Source: Escherichia coli (lineage in GTDB: Bacteria; Pseudomonadota; Gammaproteobacteria; Enterobacterales; Enterobacteriaceae). From it: 64,000 nucleotides of DNA. Each line of letters begins with the position of its first letter. Positions within the stretch are counted from its first letter, which is position 1. The notes below the pieces were generated by a model that saw only the letters and a list, made by a program, of their open reading frames with translations, ran no database searches and was not told where the DNA came from. The DNA is taken from the NCBI RefSeq assembly GCF_024223415.1, contig NZ_CP100500.1, one strand, 5' to 3'. The translations under genes and the position numbers were made by a program. Below, piece after piece: positions 644 through 12,012 of the stretch.

Positions 644-1408
644 ATGAAAATGCAGACATTACCCATCGTTCCATGGATTGGTGGCAAACGTCGCCTGGCA
701 AAACACATCCTGCCGCTGTTTCCGGCGCATGAATGTTACGTGGAGCCGTTCTGCGGCGCAGCAGCGCTCTATTTTCTTAAGACACCTGGTAAGCTCGAAG
801 TCATTAACGATATCAATGGTGAACTGGTAAATCTGTATCGGGTGGTAAAACATCATCTGGAAGAATTTGTCCGCCAGTTCAAATGGGCGCTGGTCAGCCG
901 GCAGATCTACAAATGGCTGCAGATCACCCCGACAGAAACACTGACGGATATCCAGCGTGCAGCACGGTTCTACTACCTCCAGAAGCAGGCGTTTGGCGGC
1001 AAGGTGGCAGAGCACAGCTTCGGCACCTCCACCACATCCCCGCCACGCTTCAACCTGCTGCGTATCGAGGAAGAACTGTCAGCGGCACACCTGCGGCTTT
1101 CCAGAACGGTGATAGAACACATGGACTGGCAACAGTGCATTGAGCGCTATGACCGTCCGCACACGCTGTTCTACTGTGACCCGCCGTATCTGGGTACAGA
1201 AGGCTATGGTGTGGATTTTCCTGAAGGGAACTACTCGCGGCTGGCAGAGCTGGCCCGGTGCATCAGAGGAAAGATGATAATTTCGGTGAACGACATCCCG
1301 CAGATGCGCGAGGTGTTCACTGGACTGAACATACAGACAGTGAACATCAACTACAGTCTGGCAGGCAAATCAACTCCACGCCGTGAGCTGGTGATCTGCA
1401 ATTTCTAA
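644..1408 (+). CDS. Dam-family (D12 class) N6-adenine DNA methyltransferase, orphan/phage type
   Basis: N-terminal WIGGK AdoMet-binding motif (PWIGGKRRL) and catalytic DPPY motif (YCDPPYLGTEGY); no adjacent nuclease partner. Confidence 0.85.
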   Translation: MKMQTLPIVPWIGGKRRLAKHILPLFPAHECYVEPFCGAAALYFLKTPGKLEVINDINGELVNLYRVVKHHLEEFVRQFKWALVSRQIYKWLQITPTETLTDIQRAARFYYLQKQAFGGKVAEHSFGTSTTSPPRFNLLRIEEELSAAHLRLSRTVIEHMDWQQCIERYDRPHTLFYCDPPYLGTEGYGVDFPEGNYSRLAELARCIRGKMIISVNDIPQMREVFTGLNIQTVNINYSLAGKSTPRRELVICNF

Positions 1409-1526
1409 AAGCCATAACCGGAAAGTACAGTGCTTTCCGGTAAGCCCGCCGATTTCTGCCATGCTACTGACGGCGTTTTCTGAAAGCATCCAGATCAACC
1501 ACCTGTCCTTTCTGTCCAGGTCAGAA

Positions 1527-1865
1527 TCAGCCTGCGAGTTTGCCTGGTTTGGGTTGAATGAAGACTTTGCCGACCTCAAGAATTGCCCTCCGTTGTTCGG
1601 GGCTCATCTCGTCGAATGCATCCATTAACTCTTTCTTTTCTTGTGACATATAAGGTGCAACAACAGGCTGACTCCGCACCCCAGTAACTACATACAAAAC
1701 ATCTACACCGATTTCTGATAGTGCAGATAACTGCACTGCAGTAGGAGAAGTGCGATCTTTTTCCCAATCAATAAAAGTTCTCTTTGCCACACCGATAGCA
1801 TCAGCCAACCCTTGCTGTGTAAGAGATAGACGCTCTCTTTCTTCTTTAATACGTAACCCGATCAT
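1527..1865 (-). CDS. XRE-family helix-turn-helix repressor (prophage repressor candidate)
   Basis: track ORF 1527..2018 trimmed to internal Met (MIGLRIKEERERLSLTQQGLADAIGV...); classic HTH pattern; divergent from the Ner-like gene. Confidence 0.65.
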   Translation of the reverse strand: MIGLRIKEERERLSLTQQGLADAIGVAKRTFIDWEKDRTSPTAVQLSALSEIGVDVLYVVTGVRSQPVVAPYMSQEKKELMDAFDEMSPEQRRAILEVGKVFIQPKPGKLAG

Positions 1866-1889
1866 GTGAGTTTTTCTGCACTCTTTAAG

Positions 1890-1918
1890 TTGACTGGTGA
1901 GATAATCTGCACCATAAT
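1890..1918 (+). promoter_or_regulatory. candidate sigma70 promoter for the Ner-like/early operon (TTGACT - 17 bp - CATAAT)
   Basis: -35 TTGACT and -10 CATAAT separated by 17 bp, about 45 bp upstream of the 1966 start codon; sequence-only prediction. Confidence 0.3.
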
Positions 1919-1965
1919 CTATCACACATAAGGCAAACATCATTGCATCAACAAAGGAGACAACG

Positions 1966-2154
1966 ATGACTGCAGAACAAGTCAAAGCTCTCTTCCGCCA
2001 GCGCGGGATCACTTTCACCCGCTGGGCAGAAGAAAACGGCTACAACCGCAATGAGGTATACCGCGTTCTCAATGGGCAGAGCAAAGCACGTTACGGTAAA
2101 TCCCATGAAATCGCCGTGAAACTGGGGCTGAAATCAACAGCTCAGGCAGCCTGA
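1966..2154 (+). CDS. ner: Ner-like (Ner/Nlp family) small DNA-binding protein
   Basis: 62 aa; length and HTH layout resemble phage Mu Ner (GITFTRWAEENGY...GKSHEIAVKLGL); divergent from repressor, upstream of transposase. Confidence 0.6.
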   Translation: MTAEQVKALFRQRGITFTRWAEENGYNRNEVYRVLNGQSKARYGKSHEIAVKLGLKSTAQAA

Positions 2155-2200
2155 ATATTTTGATTCTTTGTAAAAGGTTATCACATATCGCAAAAGAGGT

Positions 2201-2515
2201 ATGCAGATGAGTAAGACGAATGTTTCAAGCTCCGGCAGTCGCATCCTCCGGGTACTCAAAGCGCTGCGCGGTCATGCCCTGAACGGTATTTCCAATGGTG
2301 AACTGGCGGCAGCACTGCACGAGTCACCGGCAAACATCAACCGGGCACTCAACACCCTCATTGAAGAAGGACTGGCCCTGAAACTGGAAAACGGGCGTTT
2401 CGCACCGGGCATCCAGTTGCTGCAGATCGCCATGGCCCACAGTAACGAGATGGCACGTGCACAGGATCGCATTAACGAAATCAACCAACGTGTCATTTCA
2501 GGTAGTCGTTTGTAA
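2201..2515 (+). CDS. winged-helix (IclR N-terminal-like) DNA-binding protein, function unknown
   Basis: 104 aa; SRILRVLKAL...ISNGELAAAL...INRALNTLIEEGL pattern typical of a winged HTH. Confidence 0.45.
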   Translation: MQMSKTNVSSSGSRILRVLKALRGHALNGISNGELAAALHESPANINRALNTLIEEGLALKLENGRFAPGIQLLQIAMAHSNEMARAQDRINEINQRVISGSRL

Positions 2516-2525
2516 GGAGTAATCA

Positions 2526-3443
2526 ATGGGACGCACCAAATCACCGGTTAACACTGAACTGAACGCCGAGGTACCGCTGTCGGATGATCTCAACGTCAGC
2601 CTGAATGCCATGACACAGCATCGCATGGAGATCATGCAGCAGTTTGGTGATGGACTGCCTTATGAACGTGATCGCATCGTTCACGAAGCACGTTTTTATA
2701 TGGCGCAGAGTGCTGAATCTATGCTGGAAGCGGGTAAACGGCTGATCATCTTAAAAGAAAATGAGCCACACGGGGACTTTGTTGGAATTGTAGAAGAACA
2801 ACTTGGTTTGCACGTGCGCGCAGCACAACGAATGATGAAAGCATCTTTGAAATACCTTTCACCAAAACTAGAGCCAAAAGCGACAACGTTGTCGCTTTTG
2901 GGTAAGGCAAAATTATTTGAACTTGTTGCTGAAGACGATGAAGACCTTGCCGAACTGGCCGACGGCGGCACAGTTGCCGGCCTGACGCTTGATGATGTTG
3001 ATCGCATGTCAGTACGTGAACTTCGCCAGGCCCTGCGTGAAGCGCGCGAAACTAACGCAGCTCAGCAACAGGTGCTTGCCGGAAAGGACGAAAAAATCAA
3101 CGAACTGGCCACAAAACTGGAGAAGAAATCCCGTATTCAACCGCCTGAGCCTGATGAAGAGGTGAAGAAGCTGCGGGCGGAAGTGACCGCATTAGCGGTT
3201 GAGGCGGAATCTGCCATCGCCGTCCGGCTCTCCGGTGCCTTTGAAACCCTGTGTGAATACTGCAGTAAAAACATGATTGATACCCCCAGAGATTTCATGG
3301 CCGGTCTGGTCTGCCAGATTGAACGCAGTGTTCATGCATTGCGTGAGACGTTCGACCTTGATGCCGCACCATCGGGTAACGATGCCCCCGCCTGGCTGAC
3401 CGAACCGGAGCCTGAAATCAACCGACCGGAGGGCATGCAGTAA
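2526..3443 (+). CDS. hypothetical protein (305 aa), acidic and coiled-coil rich
   Basis: good RBS (AAGGAG) upstream; no catalytic motif recognised; sits between Ner-like gene and transposase. Confidence 0.45.
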   Translation: MGRTKSPVNTELNAEVPLSDDLNVSLNAMTQHRMEIMQQFGDGLPYERDRIVHEARFYMAQSAESMLEAGKRLIILKENEPHGDFVGIVEEQLGLHVRAAQRMMKASLKYLSPKLEPKATTLSLLGKAKLFELVAEDDEDLAELADGGTVAGLTLDDVDRMSVRELRQALREARETNAAQQQVLAGKDEKINELATKLEKKSRIQPPEPDEEVKKLRAEVTALAVEAESAIAVRLSGAFETLCEYCSKNMIDTPRDFMAGLVCQIERSVHALRETFDLDAAPSGNDAPAWLTEPEPEINRPEGMQ

Positions 3444-3760
3444 TGAACACGGATAACACACAAAATATCCTGATGGACAGCCCGGAAGCACTGGGGCACG
3501 CACTGTGTAATCTGCTGCCGGAGATGGTGCAGGGTTTCCGCGTGGTGACACCTTCCGGTGAAATCTGCGTACCCGCACAGGAGGCGCATCCGTTTGTACT
3601 GACGATGGAAGTGATGCTGATGCAGCAGATAAGACGTCTGCAGCATCAGTCAGCATTGCGCCCGGCAGTTGCGCCGCAACCGGTAAATAACGTGGTGAAA
3701 ACCTGCGATGGCGAAACACTGTACGACCTCGCCAGAAAAATTGCCGCCAGAATCGGATAA
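3443..3760 (+). CDS. hypothetical protein (105 aa)
   Basis: start overlaps upstream stop (ATGA-type coupling); no motif recognised. Confidence 0.35.
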   Translation: MNTDNTQNILMDSPEALGHALCNLLPEMVQGFRVVTPSGEICVPAQEAHPFVLTMEVMLMQQIRRLQHQSALRPAVAPQPVNNVVKTCDGETLYDLARKIAARIG

Positions 3761-3775
3761 CAGGGAAGACAAGCT

Positions 3776-5545
3776 ATGACCCCGGCACTGACTGAAAAAC
3801 TTGTTGAAACAGCCCGCGCGGCACGTAATGCAGGGCATGGTAAACGCGGTGCAATATACGACGCTGCCTGTGCTGAACTTGGCATGTCCCGCGCCACTCT
3901 GCTGCGCAGGCTGAAGGAGGTCTCTGTGACTGATAAACGCAAAAAACGCGCCGATGCCGGACGCAGCACCCTGACCCGCGACGAAGCCGCGCTGATATCT
4001 GCCACACTACGTGAGGCCACCCGCAAGAACGGTAAGCGTCTCTATTCCATCGCGGATGCAGTGGAAACCCTGCGGGCTAACGGCTTTATCTCCGCAGGCA
4101 GAACAGATGAAACCACCGGTGAGTTTTTCCCGTTGTCCGAAGATGCCATCAGTCGTGCCCTGCGTAACTATGGCCTGCACCCGGAACAACTGGATGCCCC
4201 TGCACCGCATACCGAAGTGGCCAGTCTGCACCCCAATCATGTCTGGCAGATTGACGCCTCACTCTGCACGCTTTACTACCTGAGCAATGGACATAAAGGG
4301 CTGCAGGTGATGGACAGCGCGAAATTCTACAAGAACAAGCCCGCTAACCTTGCCCGTATCGCCAGTGACCGCGTGTGGAGTTACGAGATTACCGACCATG
4401 CCAGCGGCTGGATTTACGTTGAGTATGTGACGGGTGCGGAATCCGGTGAGAACCTGTGTTCTGTGCTTATCAACGCCATGCAGGAGCGTGGCGGCGCAGA
4501 CGTGCTGCACGGCGTGCCAAAAATACTCTATCTCGACCCCGGCTCGGCAAACACCGCGGGTATGACGAAAAACATGTGCCGCTCACTGGGCATCGACCTG
4601 ATAGCGCACAAGCCGCATAACGCCCGCGCCACCGGACAGGTGGAAAAGGCGCGTGACATTATCGAACGCAAGCTGGAGCCGGGTCTGAAGTTCCGGCCGG
4701 TTCACAGTCTGGAAGAACTCAACGCGCTGGCCGCGAAATGGCGCAGCCACTTTAACGCCACGGCTGTTCACAGCCGCCACGGTAAAACCCGCACGGATAT
4801 CTGGCTGAAGATTACTGCTGAGCAGCTGAAAAAAGCGCCTTCCGTTGAGGTATGTCGTGAACTGGCTGTGGCGGCACCAGAACTCCGCAAAGTCACGCCA
4901 AAACTTCGTGTCTCGTTCCGGGGCACTGAATTTGACGTATCAACGGTACCGGGCGTACTGGTCGGTGAAAAACTGATGATTACCCGTAACCCGTGGCGCA
5001 GCGATGTGGCACAGGTGGTTCTGACCGGTGAGGACGGCCACGAGACGTTCTTCCTGGTCGAAGAGGTCAGAAAGAACGAGTTTGGCTTTGCTGAAGGCGC
5101 GGCGGTATTTGGCGAAAGTTACAAAGCCCTGCCGGAAACCCCGGCGCAGATGGCGGCAAAAGAAACCGAAGCGCTGGTCACCGGTACAGACAACGCCGCA
5201 GATGCAGCTGCCGCACGCAAGGCGAAGGCGCTGCCGTTCGGCGGGCGGCTTGACCCGTATAAACATATTGATGACGCCACACTTCCGGCCTGTATACCGA
5301 AGCGTGGTCAGGCCTCTGACGTACGCGGACCGCGCACTGAACAGCGTCCCATGACTCATGTGGAGGCCGCGAAAGCCCTGCGCGGGAAGTTTAGCGCAAA
5401 CGGCCTGACCTGGACGCCGGAACATTACCGCCAGTTAACGGCACAGTACCCGGACGGCGTACCGGAAGCCGCACTGGATGAAGTCATGGCCACGCTGACC
5501 ACGCCGGCCCGCAGCAGCGTTATCAGCATTGTTAACGGCAACTGA
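3776..5545 (+). CDS. Mu-like DDE transposase (MuA-type, integrase catalytic core)
   Basis: 589 aa; N-terminal HTH region, central rve-like core (HVWQIDAS...), immediately followed by an AAA+ B-like gene as in transposable phages. Confidence 0.85.
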   Translation: MTPALTEKLVETARAARNAGHGKRGAIYDAACAELGMSRATLLRRLKEVSVTDKRKKRADAGRSTLTRDEAALISATLREATRKNGKRLYSIADAVETLRANGFISAGRTDETTGEFFPLSEDAISRALRNYGLHPEQLDAPAPHTEVASLHPNHVWQIDASLCTLYYLSNGHKGLQVMDSAKFYKNKPANLARIASDRVWSYEITDHASGWIYVEYVTGAESGENLCSVLINAMQERGGADVLHGVPKILYLDPGSANTAGMTKNMCRSLGIDLIAHKPHNARATGQVEKARDIIERKLEPGLKFRPVHSLEELNALAAKWRSHFNATAVHSRHGKTRTDIWLKITAEQLKKAPSVEVCRELAVAAPELRKVTPKLRVSFRGTEFDVSTVPGVLVGEKLMITRNPWRSDVAQVVLTGEDGHETFFLVEEVRKNEFGFAEGAAVFGESYKALPETPAQMAAKETEALVTGTDNAADAAAARKAKALPFGGRLDPYKHIDDATLPACIPKRGQASDVRGPRTEQRPMTHVEAAKALRGKFSANGLTWTPEHYRQLTAQYPDGVPEAALDEVMATLTTPARSSVISIVNGN

Positions 5546-5555
5546 GGAGGGAAAC

Positions 5556-6722
5556 ATGCTGGTACTGAAGCAGCAACTGAAAGAGGCCCGTATTCCACAG
5601 GCGGTGGCGGCGAGAGCTGTCGATGTTTCTGAGGCCACGCTGGCCCAGATTGTGAATCATAACGCGTGGCCCCGCACCAGCCCCGGAGAAGTGCGCCGGC
5701 GTCTTGCGTCCTGGCTGGAAAGTCAGGGGATTGATACAACGAAGAGTTTTGATGCTGTACAGGGCGCGGCCACGCCCCGTACAGCGAGTACCACAGATAA
5801 AACGAGCCTCAGTGAGGAAGAGAATATGTTACTCAAAAAACAGGTGTTATTTCCAGCAACCAAAAAAGCGTTTGGTCTTTTCCGTGACCCGTTCGCCGAC
5901 GAAGCCATGCAGGGTTCTGATGATGTGTTCACCACCCCGGACATTCGCTACGTGCGTGAGGCGCTGTACCAGACAGCCCGTCATGGTGGGTTTATGGCCG
6001 TCATCGGTGAGTCCGGTGCGGGTAAATCCACGCTGCGCCGCGACCTGACTGAACGTATTAACCGCGAGAATGCGCCGGTAATTGTTATCGAGCCATACAT
6101 CATTGCCATGGAAGACAACGATGTGAAAGGGAAAACCCTGAAGGCTGCAGCGATTGCCGAAGCCATTATCAGTACCATCGCACCACTGGAAAGCATCAGA
6201 CGCAGTCAGGACGCCCGCTTTCGCCAGTTGCATCGCGTCCTGAAAGGCAGCAGCCAGGCGGGGTTCAGCCACGTTCTGGTGATTGAGGAGGCCCACAGTC
6301 TGCCCATTCCGACACTGAAACACCTCAAACGCTTTTTTGAGCTGGAGTCCGGTTTCAAAAAACTGCTGTCCATCGTGCTGATTGGCCAGCCGGAACTGGC
6401 GACAAAACTGTCTGAACGCAATATGGAAGTCCGTGAAGTCGTTCAGCGCTGTGAGGTGGTCGAACTTCTGCCTCTGGACAATAACCTTGAAGAATTTCTG
6501 ACGTTCAAACTGCAACGGGCCGGTAAACAACTGACGGACATTATGGACGCCAGCGCAGTGGATGCCATACGTGCCCGCCTGAGCAATCCGGGAAGTCATC
6601 GTAAAAATATGGTCAGCCTGCTGTATCCGCTGGCCGTCAGTAACCTGGTAATAGCCGCCATGAATCTGGCCGCTGAAATCGGGGTTCCACAGGTCAACGC
6701 TGACGTTGTCAAAGGAGTTTAA
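5556..6722 (+). CDS. MuB-like AAA+ ATPase (transposition target-DNA activator)
   Basis: Walker A GESGAGKST, Walker B-like VLVIEEAH, N-terminal HTH; start set at ATG 5556 with GAGGAGG RBS (track ORF begins 5529). Confidence 0.8.
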   Translation: MLVLKQQLKEARIPQAVAARAVDVSEATLAQIVNHNAWPRTSPGEVRRRLASWLESQGIDTTKSFDAVQGAATPRTASTTDKTSLSEEENMLLKKQVLFPATKKAFGLFRDPFADEAMQGSDDVFTTPDIRYVREALYQTARHGGFMAVIGESGAGKSTLRRDLTERINRENAPVIVIEPYIIAMEDNDVKGKTLKAAAIAEAIISTIAPLESIRRSQDARFRQLHRVLKGSSQAGFSHVLVIEEAHSLPIPTLKHLKRFFELESGFKKLLSIVLIGQPELATKLSERNMEVREVVQRCEVVELLPLDNNLEEFLTFKLQRAGKQLTDIMDASAVDAIRARLSNPGSHRKNMVSLLYPLAVSNLVIAAMNLAAEIGVPQVNADVVKGV

Positions 6723-6724
6723 TA

Positions 6725-6994
6725 ATGAAATCCACCACAGGTATCAACCAGCAAATCAGCAAAGTGCAGTCAGCCATTATGGCGCTTAAGGCGACGAACA
6801 CGGATGTACAAAGCATCACCATCAGGGGTAACAAACCTGTCATCCGCGTTTCCCGGAGTGCGCATTGCATGCGCATGCTTGAGCAGGGAAAGGCCTGTTA
6901 TCTGTATACCGGACATGACCACAGGGGATATTTCCGTCAGGGCGTTTTCGAACTGCACGGCTGTCGCGTCGTGTGGCCGGAATCTTTGTGGTAA
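6725..6994 (+). CDS. hypothetical early-region protein (89 aa)
   Basis: AAGGAG RBS; no motif recognised. Confidence 0.45.
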   Translation: MKSTTGINQQISKVQSAIMALKATNTDVQSITIRGNKPVIRVSRSAHCMRMLEQGKACYLYTGHDHRGYFRQGVFELHGCRVVWPESLW

Positions 6995-7021
6995 TCAGCA
7001 CAACCGGAGAAATCATAAAAT

Positions 7022-7552
7022 ATGGCAAAAAGTACAAAAGGGGCAAAACGTATCAAGGCCGCAGCGGCACTCTGGGTACCAGGGACACGCGAAGAGGTCA
7101 TTGAGGGAATCAGACTACTCGGTGACGCACAACGTGAACTGGTCAGGGCTGAAACAGAAATGAATGACGCCATTGGCGATATCACCGCACGTTATGCCCC
7201 GCTCACCGAGAGCCTGAAAAAACGCATGGCCGAACTGCAGTCCGGTATTCAGACATGGTGTGAGGCACACCGTGATGAACTGACCGGCAACGGGAAGGTG
7301 AAGTTCGCTAACCTCACCACCGGCGAGGTGCAGTGGCGAAACCGTCCGCCATCAGTCAGTATCCGTGGGGCGGATAATGTTATTGAATTACTGAGACGTC
7401 TGGGGCTTGAGCGCTTTATTCGTGTAAAAGAGGAAATAAATAAAGACGCTATCCTGAATGAAAAAGAGGCCGTGAAAAATATTCCCGGTATTTCCATTAA
7501 AAGCGACATTGAGGATTTTTCAATAATTCCTTTTGAGCAGGATGTGCAGTAA
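7022..7552 (+). CDS. gam: Gam-like host-nuclease inhibitor (Mu Gam family, DNA-end binding)
   Basis: 176 aa; closely resembles phage Mu Gam along its whole length as recalled (N-terminal KRIK..AAA, central ETEMND, C-terminal EDFSIIPFEQ). Confidence 0.85.
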   Translation: MAKSTKGAKRIKAAAALWVPGTREEVIEGIRLLGDAQRELVRAETEMNDAIGDITARYAPLTESLKKRMAELQSGIQTWCEAHRDELTGNGKVKFANLTTGEVQWRNRPPSVSIRGADNVIELLRRLGLERFIRVKEEINKDAILNEKEAVKNIPGISIKSDIEDFSIIPFEQDVQ

Positions 7553-7649
7553 ACACACCACGTTAATTATTTAATAAAAACATTTTCTTTTTTATTCCGG
7601 CGTCAGCGCCGCGGGCTTCTGCACGCCGGAAACAGAGGAGAATTAAATC

Positions 7650-7844
7650 ATGATATTTAAATGTATTCAGTGCGAGAGGGATATAACAGCCCTGCGTTTT
7701 CACAGCGCCATCGCCGTGATGTCCGGTAAATACCACATCCCTGCGGTACGCGTCACCCTGGTCTGTCCGTACTGCAGCCAGCATTTTTCGGCAGACGTGC
7801 CCGTCATGGAATTCTCCCGCCCTGACAGGGAGGACGCGCAATGA
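7650..7844 (+). CDS. small zinc-ribbon protein (two CxxC pairs)
   Basis: CIQC ... CPYC; GAGGAG RBS. Confidence 0.45.
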   Translation: MIFKCIQCERDITALRFHSAIAVMSGKYHIPAVRVTLVCPYCSQHFSADVPVMEFSRPDREDAQ

Positions 7845-8113
7845 TTACCCCACAGGAAGCACGACAGCGCACCCGAACCCTTGTTGAACACTATGTCAAC
7901 GAGTGTGAATGTCGCGACCTCACCGATGTGAAGCACGTCCTGACGGCGCTAATCAGCATGGCCACACAGGCCATTGTGGCAACCAACGGAAAGGCGGCTG
8001 CCCTGCAGGTACTGATGAACACACTCACCCACACGGCAGAGCATGAGGTGCCGTACCGGATGGAAACCACTGCAGAAGGCGGCCTGCACATCACCGTCAG
8101 CCGGAAGCACTGA
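7841..8113 (+). CDS. hypothetical protein (90 aa)
   Basis: start overlaps upstream stop (ATGA); no motif recognised. Confidence 0.4.
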   Translation: MITPQEARQRTRTLVEHYVNECECRDLTDVKHVLTALISMATQAIVATNGKAAALQVLMNTLTHTAEHEVPYRMETTAEGGLHITVSRKH

Positions 8114-8122
8114 GGGTGCGGC

Positions 8123-8419
8123 ATGACACGAAACACCGAACTCACCCGCACCGCCCTCTACCGTCTGGCCCTGCAGCGTTTCGGGCCGGATGCACAGGCC
8201 CTGAAACTGACAGAAGAGGCCGCTGAACTGGCGGCCAGTGCTGCCCGCAACCTGAACGGACAGGGCAGCGAAAGTGACCTCGCGGCAGAGCTGGCAGACG
8301 TGGAAATCATGACAGAGCAACTGCGCCTTCAGGGGATGGACCGGCTGATTGACTTCCACAAACAGAAAAAACTGGAACGTCTGGCTGCACGACTGGGCGT
8401 GATTTACACGAACGAGTAA
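8123..8419 (+). CDS. MazG-like nucleotide pyrophosphohydrolase candidate (all-alpha NTP-PPase fold)
   Basis: 98 aa; EExxE ... ExxD acidic motif pair (EEAAELAAS ... AAELADVEIMTEQL) at MazG-like spacing. Confidence 0.5.
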   Translation: MTRNTELTRTALYRLALQRFGPDAQALKLTEEAAELAASAARNLNGQGSESDLAAELADVEIMTEQLRLQGMDRLIDFHKQKKLERLAARLGVIYTNE

Positions 8420-8433
8420 CCGGGAGGCATTCA

Positions 8434-8556
8434 ATGGCTGACATACTCAGGGAAATCACCGCATGGACACTGATTCTTACTGGTCTGGCGACATGCCTCA
8501 GTGCGGGAGCAGCCCTGGCTGCCCTGCTGATGCACATAACAACACAGTGGTTATGA
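8434..8556 (+). CDS. small hydrophobic peptide (40 aa, one predicted TM helix)
   Basis: not in supplied track (<60 aa); GGGAGG RBS about 7 nt upstream of ATG; hand-counted coordinates. Confidence 0.3.
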   Translation: MADILREITAWTLILTGLATCLSAGAALAALLMHITTQWL

Positions 8557-8645
8557 GAAAAGCTTAAAGCAGCATACAGCCTGAAAGAGCTGTCCGACGC
8601 TGTCCGGGCATGGAAACGGCAGAAAAATACCGGAGATACAGAACA

Positions 8646-9329
8646 ATGACAGACCAGAATAAACACATTGAGAAACTGAAAAAGTTGCTGGCGCTGGCCG
8701 CATCCGGCAACCCGCATGAGGCTGCTCTGGCACTGCGCCGCGCCCGTAAACTGATGGATGTTCACGGCATCACACATTCCGACATCGCCATGAGTGATAT
8801 TGATGAAACCATCAGTCACTACTGGCCGACAGGCAGCCTCCGTCCGCCGCGCTACATGCCAGGGCTGATGAACATCATCCGCGAGGCATTTGGTGTTAAC
8901 TCCATCATTCACCCCGGCACATATCCGGGTGTGGGGTTCTACGGCAAACGGGAACGGGCCGCACTGGCCGCGTACACCTGGGAAGTGCTGGCCCGTCAGC
9001 TGAAAAAGGCGCGTCAGCAGTATATCAGTGCACAGAACAAAAGAATAAAAACCGCCACCCGCACCAGCCGTGGAGACCAGTTTGCTGAAGGCTGGGTGCT
9101 GGCCGTTATCAGTGAAATACAGTCCTTCGCCCTGACCAATGACGAACGTGAACTGATGCAGCAGTGGCTGGAACATAAATACCCGCAGACGCAAACCACC
9201 AGGGCGCGTAAACCGGGAAGAAGTCGCAATGGCGACGCCTCGCGCTATGCGGGGTTTCGAGAAGGGCAGAACGTCAGACTGCACCGACCGGTCAGTGGGC
9301 GGGAACAGCAGAAACTGGAGGCCAGATGA
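8646..9329 (+). CDS. DUF2786-like phage protein
   Basis: track ORF 8610..9329 trimmed to Met with GGAGA RBS; N-terminal KLLALAASGNPHEAALALRRARKLM motif typical of this family. Confidence 0.5.
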   Translation: MTDQNKHIEKLKKLLALAASGNPHEAALALRRARKLMDVHGITHSDIAMSDIDETISHYWPTGSLRPPRYMPGLMNIIREAFGVNSIIHPGTYPGVGFYGKRERAALAAYTWEVLARQLKKARQQYISAQNKRIKTATRTSRGDQFAEGWVLAVISEIQSFALTNDERELMQQWLEHKYPQTQTTRARKPGRSRNGDASRYAGFREGQNVRLHRPVSGREQQKLEAR

Positions 9330-9556
9330 TGACGTTATCAGGTAACAGCCGGAAATTAAAAGCCTGCCGAATATCTGCCAGATACCTTTTTGCCCGCGCC
9401 TTTTTTAAGAACGTCAGGCCGGGGATCACAATTGGTGTTATTGCCGGACGCGAACAGGTTGAAAAATACATGTCAGGTGCATGGTGGAATAAAGACCCTG
9501 TCATTGCTGCCCGTAATATTCATATCAGTTGGGGAGATATTCAGAATGACTGCTGA
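9326..9556 (+). CDS. hypothetical protein (76 aa)
   Basis: GGAGG RBS; overlaps neighbours head-to-tail. Confidence 0.35.
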   Translation: MMTLSGNSRKLKACRISARYLFARAFFKNVRPGITIGVIAGREQVEKYMSGAWWNKDPVIAARNIHISWGDIQNDC

Positions 9557-9761
9557 ATCTGTTGTATGTGCCCTGTTCTGGTATTGTTTTGTCGGTTGGT
9601 GTACTGCTGAACTGCACCGCCGTTCAGGGTTTTATTCACGTTACAGTGGTGCCGGTTACTGGATTAGCTGGTCGGTGATGTTCCTGTGCTGGCCTGTGGC
9701 ATTTCCTTTATATGTCGATTATATCGGTGATGCAGGCAGAAGGAGCAACGATGATGACTAA
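9546..9761 (+). CDS. small Trp/Cys-rich membrane protein (71 aa)
   Basis: track ORF 9390..9761 trimmed to ATG 9546; hydrophobic. Confidence 0.35.
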   Translation: MTAESVVCALFWYCFVGWCTAELHRRSGFYSRYSGAGYWISWSVMFLCWPVAFPLYVDYIGDAGRRSNDDD

Positions 9762-10203
9762 ACAACGTCTTATCCAGCTTATCCATATTGCCCGTAATGA
9801 ACTGGGTATGGATGAAGACACCTACCGCCAGATGTTACAGGGGCTGACCGGTAAAGCCTCAACCAAAGGAATGGATACCACACAACTAAACTGCGTGCTG
9901 GAATCCATGAAAAGGAAAGGCTTTCGCGTTAAGCCTGCCGGAAAAGCCAGCTCCGGTTTACCGCTGGATAACCATCCGCAGTCCAGGAAAATCCGTGCGC
10001 TATGGCTTGAAATGGCTGCTGCCGGCATTGTTCGTGACCGTTCAGAAAATGCATTAGCGCGGTGGATCAAGCGGGAAACGGGCATCAGCGCCCTGCGCTG
10101 GCTCAATACTGAACAGGCAAGCAGTGTTATTGAGAAACTGAAGAAGTGGCAGCACAGAGCTGCGGGAGTAAAACATGAGCGACCTGAATCAGTTTCGAAG
10201 TAA
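9751..10203 (+). CDS. gemA: GemA-like protein (Mu GemA family)
   Basis: N-terminal KQRLIQLIHIARNELGMDEDTYRQML pattern; positioned directly upstream of mor as in Mu. Confidence 0.75.
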   Translation: MMTKQRLIQLIHIARNELGMDEDTYRQMLQGLTGKASTKGMDTTQLNCVLESMKRKGFRVKPAGKASSGLPLDNHPQSRKIRALWLEMAAAGIVRDRSENALARWIKRETGISALRWLNTEQASSVIEKLKKWQHRAAGVKHERPESVSK

Positions 10204-10573
10204 AGGGCCGGAACTCCTGGTGGAGCTGGCACAGCATACCTCTGAGACCGTTCGCGAGATTATTGATATTGAGCCCGCAATTGCCGACCAGATTGGTCAG
10301 GCCGTCGCGAACCGAATGATGCAGGTCTGGGGCGGGCAAAACGTTTATTTCCCGATGGGCATGGTATGGAAGGTCAGTCAGCGCGACCGGGAAATCTTCA
10401 GGGAGTTTAACGGACGCAACCACCACGAACTGGCCCGCAAGTTTGGTGTTTCGCTTCAGTGGGTCTACAGCGTGGTTAAGCGGGTCAGAAAAGAAGAACT
10501 GGATCGGATGCAGGGCAGGTTGTTTGATGAAGATCTGCCAGAGGAGACGAAAGACGTTAACAAATCCAGATAA
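10175..10573 (+). CDS. mor: Mor-family transcriptional activator (Mu middle operon regulator)
   Basis: 132 aa; C-terminal HTH REIFREFNGRNHHELARKFGVSLQWVYSVVKR typical of Mor/C family. Confidence 0.85.
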   Translation: MSDLNQFRSKGPELLVELAQHTSETVREIIDIEPAIADQIGQAVANRMMQVWGGQNVYFPMGMVWKVSQRDREIFREFNGRNHHELARKFGVSLQWVYSVVKRVRKEELDRMQGRLFDEDLPEETKDVNKSR

Positions 10574-10618
10574 TTCCTGCTTGTTAAAGTCCTTTCAAAA
10601 ATCTCCTTATTGTATAAA

Positions 10619-10649
10619 AGCACGGTAGACCCCGTACCGTGCTTTTTTT
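10619..10649 (+). terminator. rho-independent terminator downstream of mor
   Basis: GC-rich hairpin AGCACGGTA...TACCGTGCT followed by a run of 7 T. Confidence 0.5.
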
Positions 10650-10687
10650 ATGCTCTCTCTTTAGTATTCAGGATGCAGGGAGAAAAT

Positions 10688-11320
10688 ATGTTTGACGTTT
10701 CGTTGTTAAATCTGCCATGGGCAACACTGGTGACCCTGACCAGTGGCTATATTGGGTATTTTATTGCGAATGTGGGACTGAAGGATCACCACAAGCCCAT
10801 TGAGGTGACTTTTTCTTCGCTGATTTTTGGCCTGACAGCAATGATGGCTTACCAGGCTGTTATGTGGGCAGGTCTGAATGCCTGGCTGGCAACACCACCA
10901 GCACTTCTGTGTGCCGTTACATGCGGTGCGTGGTGGCGCAGGTACGGTCGCAAATGGATGTACAGATTACTGTGGAATAATGATATTTCATGGTCTGACG
11001 ATACCAGCTCAGCATGGCAGGCAATGTTTGATCAAACAGGCTTCAGCGTTACCGAGGTCAGAGTGATTCTTCGCGATGGTTCCGGTATGATGTCACGGCT
11101 GCCAGGGAACTTTGAACAGTGGCCTAACGGTCCGTTTACCCTGGGGAATAAAGGCGATATGGTTCTTTACGTCACGCACAGCAGCCCTTCAGGCAGTAAC
11201 GAATGGGAAGAGTATAAAGGCGTGGTTGATAAGTACTGGGGAGCTCTGGCAACCTATATTCCAGCAGATCAGATTGCCAGAGTGGAGATCAGGCGCGTTC
11301 GTGCAACGAACGATGAATGA
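10688..11320 (+). CDS. membrane protein (210 aa), N-terminal TM helices plus soluble C-terminal domain
   Basis: track ORF 10610..11320 trimmed to ATG 10688 (GGGAGAA RBS) because the upstream part overlaps the mor terminator. Confidence 0.5.
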   Translation: MFDVSLLNLPWATLVTLTSGYIGYFIANVGLKDHHKPIEVTFSSLIFGLTAMMAYQAVMWAGLNAWLATPPALLCAVTCGAWWRRYGRKWMYRLLWNNDISWSDDTSSAWQAMFDQTGFSVTEVRVILRDGSGMMSRLPGNFEQWPNGPFTLGNKGDMVLYVTHSSPSGSNEWEEYKGVVDKYWGALATYIPADQIARVEIRRVRATNDE

Positions 11321-11670
11321 TGTTTATTTTTTCCCTGGGGCAGGGGCTGCCGGCATAGTGGTTTTATTGGCAGAGGAAGACGATTCTCCTTTTCTACCGG
11401 AATCGCGCTCGAACGTCACGATGTGCTTGCTTTTGGGATTTTCTGAGTAATCCAGGCTATCATGCTTATTGTTTTGAGTAGTCATTGGAATCATCCTTTT
11501 TGTTGCGGGTCATGTTTCAGCAAACTCGATTCTAAGTTGCCAGGAAGGATGATTTCAATGCCCGACTTATCTATCGTATAGCGGAAAAGAATTTCAGTTC
11601 TGTTCACCAGAACCCATGTTAACCCACTCCAATTCGTTATTTATCTCACGGATCCCCCTTCATTTATCTC

Positions 11671-12012
11671 ATGTCTGATCAGGTGCGTAAGCTCTCTGGC
11701 GGCAACCAGCAGAAAGTTATCCTCGCGCGCTGCATGGCGCTCAATCCACGGGTGTTGATTGTCGATGAGCCGACGCGTGGCATCGACGTTGGAACCAAAT
11801 CGGAAGTGCACCAGGTGTTGTTTGATATGGCGAAAAAGGGCGTGGCGGTGATCGTGATCTCCTCCGATCTGCTTGAAGTGATGGCGGTGTCTGACCGGAT
11901 CATCACCCTTAGTGAAGGCCGGTTAACTGGCGAGATCCACGGTGACGACGCTAACGAAGAACGGCTGATGACGATGATGGCTATCAACCACAACGCCCTG
12001 AACGCGGCATAA
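11671..12012 (+). pseudogene. 5'-truncated sugar ABC transporter ATP-binding protein (C-terminal ~113 aa only)
   Basis: LSGGNQQK signature, Walker B LIVDEPTRGIDV; the N-terminal ~390 aa expected for a RbsA-like two-domain ATPase are missing. Confidence 0.8.

Follow-up and report, generated by a model that had tools for sequence, protein, structure and literature searches.

Between positions 6725 and 9761 of a 64,000-nucleotide stretch of Escherichia coli DNA (contig NZ_CP100500.1 of assembly GCF_024223415.1; the whole stretch is called the window below), a block of small genes is packed between the B gene and gemA of a Mu-type prophage. The window from position 1 to about 11681 constitutes the right-hand portion of this transposable prophage and has the layout of phage BcepMu. 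A Dam-type methylase gene and a repressor gene on the minus strand are followed by a ner-like gene, a helix-turn-helix gene, a DUF3102 gene and a 105-residue gene, and then by A (an rve-type transposase), B (an ExeA-like AAA protein), the block itself, gemA and mor. The early operon runs toward the genome end, as it does in BcepMu. An earlier inspection of the letters, referred to here as the sequence-only reading, had delimited the block, and its coordinates proved exact: the first open reading frame (ORF) past B has its ATG at 6725, and the last one, which overlaps gemA, has its stop at 9761. The position also agrees with that of the semi-essential early region of Mu, as had been proposed, since the block follows A and B and precedes gemA and mor in what appears to be one transcription unit. 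With a probability of roughly 80%, we attribute the block to a transposable E. coli prophage of the BcepMu kind, as the accessory ("semi-essential") portion of its single early operon.

A promoter-like site (TTGACT-17-CATAAT) was found at 1890-1918, upstream of ner, and a strong terminator with a 12-bp stem and a T-run at 10616-10646, directly past mor. Inside the block, a consensus scan of the plus strand returned just two weak terminator-like sites. Taken together, these features place the block most simply within one long early transcript, from which it would be expressed with A and B.

The sequence-only reading had counted eight ORFs. The plus strand carries nine, named p1 to p9 in the order from B to gemA, and the same nine are annotated by the Prokaryotic Genome Annotation Pipeline (PGAP) in a 99%-identical prophage. 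Each of the nine matched a PHROG phage family (E-values from 1e-14 to 1e-75) and each is preceded by a Shine-Dalgarno-like (SD) motif, whereas scans against NCBIfam and PADLOC gave no match for any of them. The overlapping start and stop codons that had been noted are present: an ATGA joins p3 to p4 and p7 to p8, as well as p6 to p7 in relatives with an intact p6, while p8 and p9 overlap by 11 nucleotides and p9 and gemA by 8. For seven ORFs, an orthologue could be scored in the two diverged relatives used for comparison: Escherichia phage Phi06_2974 B (L050), and a contig of BcepMu type whose record bears the name Klebsiella phage KP12 (L049). Ratios of nonsynonymous to synonymous substitution (dN/dS) were 0.15-0.43 with high or saturated dS, which points to purifying selection on the scorable genes. 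For p1, dS was too saturated for a ratio, with dN just 0.22-0.23, and p6 has no orthologue in either relative.

Two minus-strand ORFs compete with these genes. The record of Escherichia phage PhiKM (PQ738613; L001 10934-11155) annotates a hypothetical minus-strand gene over p3, probably a mis-call, and a 325-residue antisense ORF (8307-9284, minus strand) lies opposite p7, where it results from the GC richness of the coding strand. Neither matched a PHROG family, and the length of neither is kept in Phi06_2974 B.

The block differs from its flanks in its evolution. In a sliding comparison with Phi06_2974 B, identity was 85-95% through B, fell at about 6750 and was 85-93% again from about 9540, so that the limits of the block nearly coincide with those of a mosaic accessory module; within it, identity varied from 32 to 80%, with three gaps at missing genes. 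Overall, the block shares 40-75% identity with relatives that reach 85-93% in the flanks. Phi06_2974 B lacks p6 and p8. The KP12 contig lacks p4, p6 and p7 and carries another gene of 128 residues; the absence of p7 notwithstanding, its A and B are the same genes, 92% identical. Presence and absence among these close relatives suggest that p4, p6, p7 and p8 are dispensable. Across 131 loci, diverse phages whose B is of the ExeA type also had p1, p5 and p7 (32-77% identity), p3, p4, p6, p8 and p9 were limited to the close lineage, and none of these genes was detected by tblastn at classical Mu-type loci. This distribution is what would be expected of a recombining cassette module outside the conserved core, with a "soft core" (the Kil-like protein, the pyrophosphohydrolase and the DUF2786 protein, all discussed below) and lineage-specific cargo. 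The accessory character claimed for the region by the sequence-only reading is thereby borne out, in that the block behaves as a fast-turnover module relative to its flanks. As to the KP12 contig itself (OM835952, "Klebsiella phage KP12 clone KP12_2"), it is classified under Vequintavirinae yet has BcepMu-like A, B, gemA and mor genes; it is likely a co-assembled prophage contig and not part of that lytic phage.

The corresponding region of Mu, between B and gemA/mor, comprises kil, gp6-gp9, gam and gp11-gp15, and is classically dispensable, kil included. It shares with the block the place in the early operon, the orientation, the flanking genes by function, gam (61% identity), a Kil homologue as first gene after B, and a hairpin of the same type in the gap of about 98 nucleotides that follows gam. 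Mu differs in having MuA and MuB where this prophage has the BcepMu-type rve transposase and the ExeA-like AAA protein, and in the orientation of its operon, which here faces the genome end as in BcepMu. No counterpart of p3-p9 was detected among Mu proteins by phmmer, and comparison of p4-p9 with all Mu and BcepMu early proteins by hhalign gave probabilities below 3%; p3 showed a weak zinc-knuckle similarity to Mu gp6 (hhalign probability 42%). With BcepMu, whose gp07-gp03 region is the equivalent, the prophage shares the genome architecture, a homologous B (E = 4e-145), GemA and Mor. BcepMu gp07 occupies the position of Kil and p1 and is weakly related to the p1 family (hhalign probability 70%; phrog_2041 E = 0.008), and both regions encode a pyrophosphatase. 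In contrast, BcepMu has DUF3164, HU and SSB-like proteins where the block has Gam, p3, p4 and p6-p9, and a hairpin leader was not detected in the first 14 kb of its genome.

The first gene of the block, p1 (6725-6994, plus strand, 89 residues), matched PHROG 2041 with E = 3e-36, and a protein identical to it (WP_000843446.1) is named "HI_1482 family" by PGAP. A deep search defined a family of about 50 representatives of 85-105 residues with a conserved C-terminal G-C-R-V-V-W motif; two giant repetitive proteins at the top of this search were compositional artefacts. When the p1 family profile was compared with the single Mu Kil sequence, hhalign gave a probability of 86%, and against an alignment of nine Kil variants the probability was 92.9% (E = 3.7e-7, 73 columns). 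These alignments cover 69-73 columns and are full-length, including the C-terminal motif, which in Kil reads G-C-x-[IV]-[IV]-W. Cross-matches between the PHROG families were reciprocal and in the same full-length register, but weak (E = 0.2-0.27). Kil (gp5) and p1 belong to a similar size class (74 and 89 residues), although they are filed in separate PHROGs (2743 and 2041). The position is also shared: p1, Mu Kil, BcepMu gp07 and a distant p1-family member in a classical Mu-like prophage all lie directly after B, as presumably does FluMu HI_1482, to judge from its name. Profile comparison and synteny thus point to p1 as a remote homologue of Mu Kil. Expression of Mu kil turns E. coli cells spherical, as described in a passage of PMC3961180 that cites Waggoner 1989. 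A literature search on HI1482 returned nothing relevant.

Structure prediction and fold search had been proposed as checks for proteins such as this one, and models of p1 and p7 were examined (predicted local distance difference test, pLDDT, 89 and 81, respectively). The p1 model, a confident one, weakly resembled the cores of nucleotidyltransferase folds; assignment to such enzymes was rejected, as the conserved catalytic carboxylates and the hG[GS] motif are absent. A search of PDB sequences with the p1 profile gave nothing significant.

The second gene, p2 (7022-7552, plus strand, 176 residues), is gam, as the sequence-only reading had recognised. It matched PHROG 491 (E = 5.5e-73) and, over its full length, the Gam family PF07352, and is 61% identical to Mu Gam (phmmer E = 8e-66). 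Mu Gam, a Ku-like protector of double-strand ends and inhibitor of host nuclease, shields DNA ends from RecBCD. At positions 4288-4899 of both L050 and L049, a DUF3164 protein (phrog_846) stands in place of Gam, as in BcepMu. Since no locus examined had both, the two may be functional alternatives, a suggestion that is weak in that the sample was selected on Gam.

Between gam and p3 lies a conserved structured element, the hairpin leader (7556-7652, plus strand). It consists, in order, of an AT-rich tract with ATTTAAT, a pyrimidine run (7583-7593), a GC-rich hairpin with arms at 7597-7603 and 7623-7629, the sequence AAACAG, the SD motif (7634-7641) and the ATG of p3. The 97-nucleotide gap between the two genes has a stable RNA fold (-29.5 kcal/mol, z = -4.75), and the 60-nucleotide bin with the hairpin is 80% identical to L050, compared with 37-67% in neighbouring bins and a non-homologous upstream gene. 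An analogous hairpin element is present in the 98-nucleotide gap after gam in Mu, and in another Mu-like prophage at a more downstream place. The stem varies between phages and stays complementary: GGCGCGA/TCGCGCC, CGGCGTCA/TGCACGCCG, GGCGTAA/TTACGCC and GGCGTGA/TCACGCC. Misalignment of the 3' arms led RNAalifold, run on a MAFFT alignment, to an incorrect local fold, and the stem was therefore specified by hand. On the MAFFT alignment, 83.9% of stem cells were paired, against at most 48% with a slid partner; a further count of stem cells gave 86.6% paired, against at most 57% with the partner slid. The alignment A7, which was fitted to the model, contained 24 compensatory stem cells, compared with 7.1±2.8 in shuffles. 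The hairpin leader is thus conserved and covarying.

In 52 sources, a covariance model of the element (R1) gave 36 matches, every one of them on the strand of the operon; the 64-kb window has a single copy. A phage may have as many as three: two were found in one locus (L116) and three in another (L117), where each copy is immediately 5' of a successive small ORF. The same model found nothing in the first 14 kb of BcepMu and nothing at com-mom of Mu, and Rfam gave no match at E ≤ 1 over 1400-11800. The literature searched for stem-loops of the Mu early transcript contained nothing relevant, and the leader seems to be undescribed there. An intrinsic terminator in either direction was considered and rejected: on the plus strand a T-run precedes the stem and an A-run trails it, and the terminator scan was silent at this place.

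In 11 of 16 lineages, the minimum-energy fold pairs the pyrimidine run with the SD motif, and the predicted pairing probability of the p3 SD motif (0.88) is the highest among 17 starts in the operon. Because the pyrimidine run can pair with the ribosome-binding site of p3, the leader would damp or time translation, and we consider an RNA-level leader for translation control or processing to be its most likely identity. Functional analogies are offered by the translation-inhibitory stem of Mu Com/mom and by the early RNase III sites of T7, which are likewise intergenic phage stem-loops that can occlude the next ribosome-binding site; repeated copies between successive genes, as in some of the phages here, are a further likeness. 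The comparison is one of analogy, as the leader is a predicted structure and com-mom has no sequence relation to it. A wider proposal, tentative at best, would make the leader an undescribed class of cis-acting RNA of Mu-like phages, in which an AT-rich tract and a pyrimidine anti-SD run are followed by a GGCG...CGCC hairpin, its loop rich in G, and by a ribosome-binding site. Such elements might move together with accessory cassettes, a phage having as many as three element-gene units in tandem, and control translation or mRNA processing, and their conserved sequence might serve as a recombination joint for cassette exchange.

The zinc-ribbon protein of the sequence-only reading is p3 (7650-7844, plus strand, 64 residues), with invariant C5, C8, C39, P40, C42 and P51. 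It matched PHROG 3401 (E = 1e-40), a family that also takes in zinc-ribbon genes overlapping the gam stop in other Mu-like phages, and nothing significant in Pfam; dN/dS was 0.15-0.27. A role as Com-like zinc-finger activator was rejected, since Mu Com was matched with an hhalign probability of just 40% and p3 and the hairpin do not co-occur: the hairpin is missing from seven loci with p3 and, conversely, present at Mu-type loci, which lack p3. The following gene, p4 (7841-8113, plus strand, 90 residues), is lineage-restricted and has no assigned function. It matched PHROG 3691 (E = 8e-56) and had no significant match in Pfam. With 45% amino acid identity in L050, absence from the KP12 contig and a dN/dS of 0.43, it is the fastest-evolving gene of the block.

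The ORF described earlier as MazG-like, p5 (8123-8419, plus strand, 98 residues), held up under closer inspection. It matched PHROG 2245, a family of nucleoside triphosphate (NTP) pyrophosphohydrolases, with E = 4.8e-34, and is named NTP pyrophosphatase by both PGAP and the Joint Genome Institute. In its EExxE...ExxD motif, E31, E32, E56, D59, E61 and E65 are invariant among 20 homologues and E35 is nearly so, and the gene is found at 48-77% identity in diverse Mu-like phages with an ExeA-type B. Family, naming and motif suggest a small all-alpha MazG-type NTP pyrophosphohydrolase with an intact catalytic motif. Phage MazG-like enzymes, such as Atd1 of Pectobacterium phage PcCB7V and cyanophage MazG, are also small and all-alpha with the EExxE...ExxD motif, and are encoded among early or accessory phage genes. 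Atd1 degrades (p)ppGpp and counters TIR-STING toxicity (bioRxiv 10.1101/2022.06.09.495361). The (p)ppGpp activity belongs to Atd1, whereas p5 is known here from its sequence. The statement that, apart from Gam and the DUF2786 protein, none of the ORFs had a recognisable function was thus too pessimistic with regard to the Kil homology of p1 and the catalytic motif of p5.

Two tiny hydrophobic proteins had been announced, and both were confirmed: p6 (8434-8556, plus strand; Kyte-Doolittle maximum 1.98) has one clear transmembrane segment, and p9 (9546-9761, plus strand, 71 residues, Trp/Cys-rich) has two hydrophobic segments rich in aromatic residues. The small size of p6, 40 residues, is however that of a truncated gene. 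The protein aligns with positions 1-40 of the 71-position profile of phrog_3958; codon 41 is TGA (8554-8556) here and TGG in 25 of 33 sampled relatives, where the gene encodes 71 residues, and the ancestral frame continues to 8649, ending in the ATGA overlap with p7. p6 is therefore a nonsense-truncated allele (TGG to TGA), shortened from 71 to 40 residues, of which the single membrane segment alone is left. The TGA allele is common to a sublineage that includes strain NR301. For p9, the match to PHROG 6436 had E = 1e-14, and the amino acid identity of 83-86% in the diverged relatives, the same level as for gemA, places it in the conserved right flank.

The largest protein of the block, p7 (8646-9329, plus strand, 227 residues, isoelectric point 10.3), is the DUF2786 protein noted earlier. 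The start at 8646 was taken, the longer one at 8610 being without support from homologues. Pfam matches to PF10979 (DUF2786) and PF23771 (DUF7168), both also found in nearly all full-length homologues, were obtained together with PHROG 421 (E = 3e-75), and distant Mu-like phages with an ExeA-type B have the gene at 35-65% identity. The model shows an N-terminal helical hairpin, a small alpha/beta KH-like core, long helices and a disordered basic tail. An assignment as KH-domain nucleic-acid binder was rejected, as the GXXG loop is missing from this core. AFDB50 contained 674 structural relatives, and the best 50 of these 674 were all uncharacterised or DUF2786/DUF7168 proteins. Searches of PDB sequences with p7 and with the p5 and p7 profiles gave nothing significant, and nothing relevant was found in the literature on DUF2786 and DUF7168. 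The remaining gene, p8 (9326-9556, plus strand, 76 residues, basic), has no assigned function. It matched PHROG 3681 (E = 3e-53) and nothing in Pfam even at E = 10; it is 72% identical in the KP12 contig, absent from L050, and has a dN/dS of 0.21.

From these assignments, a course of events may be sketched in which the activities of the proteins, beyond homology, are what we infer. Once the prophage is induced or a cell infected, RNA synthesis would begin at the early promoter near 1900 and proceed via ner, A, B and the block to the terminator past mor, and the nine small genes would be translated from this polycistronic RNA, several of them coupled by overlapping stop and start codons. As a member of the Kil family, p1 probably acts, like Mu Kil, on the host envelope or shape machinery and would be toxic if expressed alone. 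Gam would bind the ends of linear phage DNA and shield them from RecBCD. For the genes in the distal half of the block, the hairpin leader would dampen translation or set its timing, or else provide a site of processing. Further along, p5 would hydrolyse some NTP or alarmone, either as a house-cleaning enzyme or to weaken a signal of stress or immunity, and the basic p7 would most likely bind nucleic acid or a host protein, while p3, p4, p8 and the membrane proteins p6 and p9 would be lineage-specific modulators.

Several observations weigh against parts of this picture. The identity between p1 and Kil is just 15-20%, and their homology depends on profile comparison and synteny. In Pfam, the match of p5 was to PRA-PH only and not significant (E = 0.041), with no significant direct match to the MazG family; a search of PDB sequences, including the solved MazG structures, was likewise without significant match, the best pyrophosphohydrolase being 5ie9 (E = 0.68), and no similarity of p5 to the gp06 pyrophosphatase of BcepMu could be detected. 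With respect to the leader, the covariation figures from A7 lean toward the model to which that alignment was fitted, the pairing of the SD motif is a prediction and is weaker in some lineages (0.41-0.5), and the hairpin could act at the DNA level instead.

The prophage is common. Escherichia phage PhiKM, classified in Bcepmuvirus, is 97.6% identical to the block, and 618 of 5426 complete E. coli genomes carry the block over at least 80% of its length at 95% identity or more, in every case on the chromosome. The lysogens have many different host insertion sites, as is expected from random transposition. Similarity to other lysogens stops at about 11681, with host DNA beyond this prophage/host junction. 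The ORF at 11671-12012 encodes only the C-terminal 113 residues of an ABC-transporter ATPase, which indicates that the prophage inserted into that gene and split it. In E. coli Ec-U4 (L051 1-1198), ISEcp1 truncates B of the same prophage and the accessory block is intact. At the extreme right end, past the mor terminator, are a gene for a 210-residue membrane protein (10688-11320, plus strand; phrog_12870) and a gene of 53-56 residues (11324-11494, minus strand; phrog_15726), neither of which has an assigned function or had a PADLOC match; a relative (L006) has a 253-residue gene at the same place. Such a location is typical for cargo expressed in the lysogen. Outside the early operon, upstream of the repressor, lies the gene of a Dam-type DNA adenine methylase (644-1408; PADLOC MTase_II, E = 1e-113). 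No restriction partner was seen nearby, and the enzyme is therefore probably the phage's own anti-restriction modification.

The sequence-only reading had further noted that the block occupies a position at which host-takeover and counter-defence functions usually reside. The former is a reasonable framing for Kil and Gam; the latter was drawn from position, and a counter-defence role beyond Gam is plausible. Taken to its full extent, this idea would make the block chiefly a counter-defence island, in which most of the ORFs of unassigned function inhibit bacterial immunity and the turnover reflects an arms race. Gam as an antagonist of RecBCD, the divergence and variable content of the block relative to its flanks, the rapid evolution of p4, the anti-TIR-STING activity reported for a phage MazG-like enzyme and the early expression of the genes, as judged by position, would all fit. 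However, beyond Gam no ORF matched a characterised anti-defence protein in PHROG, NCBIfam, PADLOC or the literature consulted, no dedicated anti-defence library having been searched, and literature on anti-defence in Mu-like early regions yielded nothing relevant. Every dN/dS was below 0.5, as in purifying and not diversifying selection, and p1 is homologous to a host-killing/shape protein, not to an immune inhibitor. Moreover, since p1, p5 and p7 are conserved across distant Mu-like phages with an ExeA-type B, a housekeeping early role fits them at least as well, and better than strain-specific evasion. An island of this kind appears unlikely to us, if worth keeping in mind.

A second alternative regards p1, p5 and p7 as accessories of transposition or replication, connected with the ExeA-type B, target DNA or nucleotide pools, so that only p3, p4, p6 and p8 would be dispensable cargo. 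The co-occurrence of the three genes with ExeA-type B and their absence from classical MuB-type loci argue for it, as do the constant position of p1 directly after B and the basic nature and KH-like sub-domain of p7. Genes of the p1 family and kil also trail a MuB-type B, though, and the association is therefore not specific to the ExeA type; the KP12 contig has lost p7 with A and B conserved, and the region of Mu that would correspond is the dispensable one mentioned above. We judge this explanation to be unlikely as well. A third possibility, that the short ORFs, in part or in full, arose by chance in prophage DNA that is decaying or does not code, as the broken frame of p6 and the minus-strand ORFs over p3 and opposite p7 might have indicated, is effectively refuted by the family matches and SD motifs of all nine ORFs, the purifying selection on scorable pairs and the non-conservation of the minus-strand frames.

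The preferred interpretation, an accessory part of the early operon, leaves the general picture of Mu-type early regions unchanged, and the additions made here, the Kil link of the HI_1482 family and the conserved hairpin leader, are modest. The ORFs without assigned function are well-defined and conserved candidates for screens of host takeover or counter-defence. Roughly every ninth complete E. coli genome carries the prophage, so that its early genes would be expressed by much of the natural E. coli population upon induction. Through the link between HI_1482/phrog_2041 and Kil, a protein that many Mu-like phages encode after B acquires a function open to testing, and the same link could help in finding the target of Kil. 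Should the hairpin leader prove to act on RNA, transposable phages would possess in it a simple and portable means of control, by which the limits of their cassettes could also be recognised.

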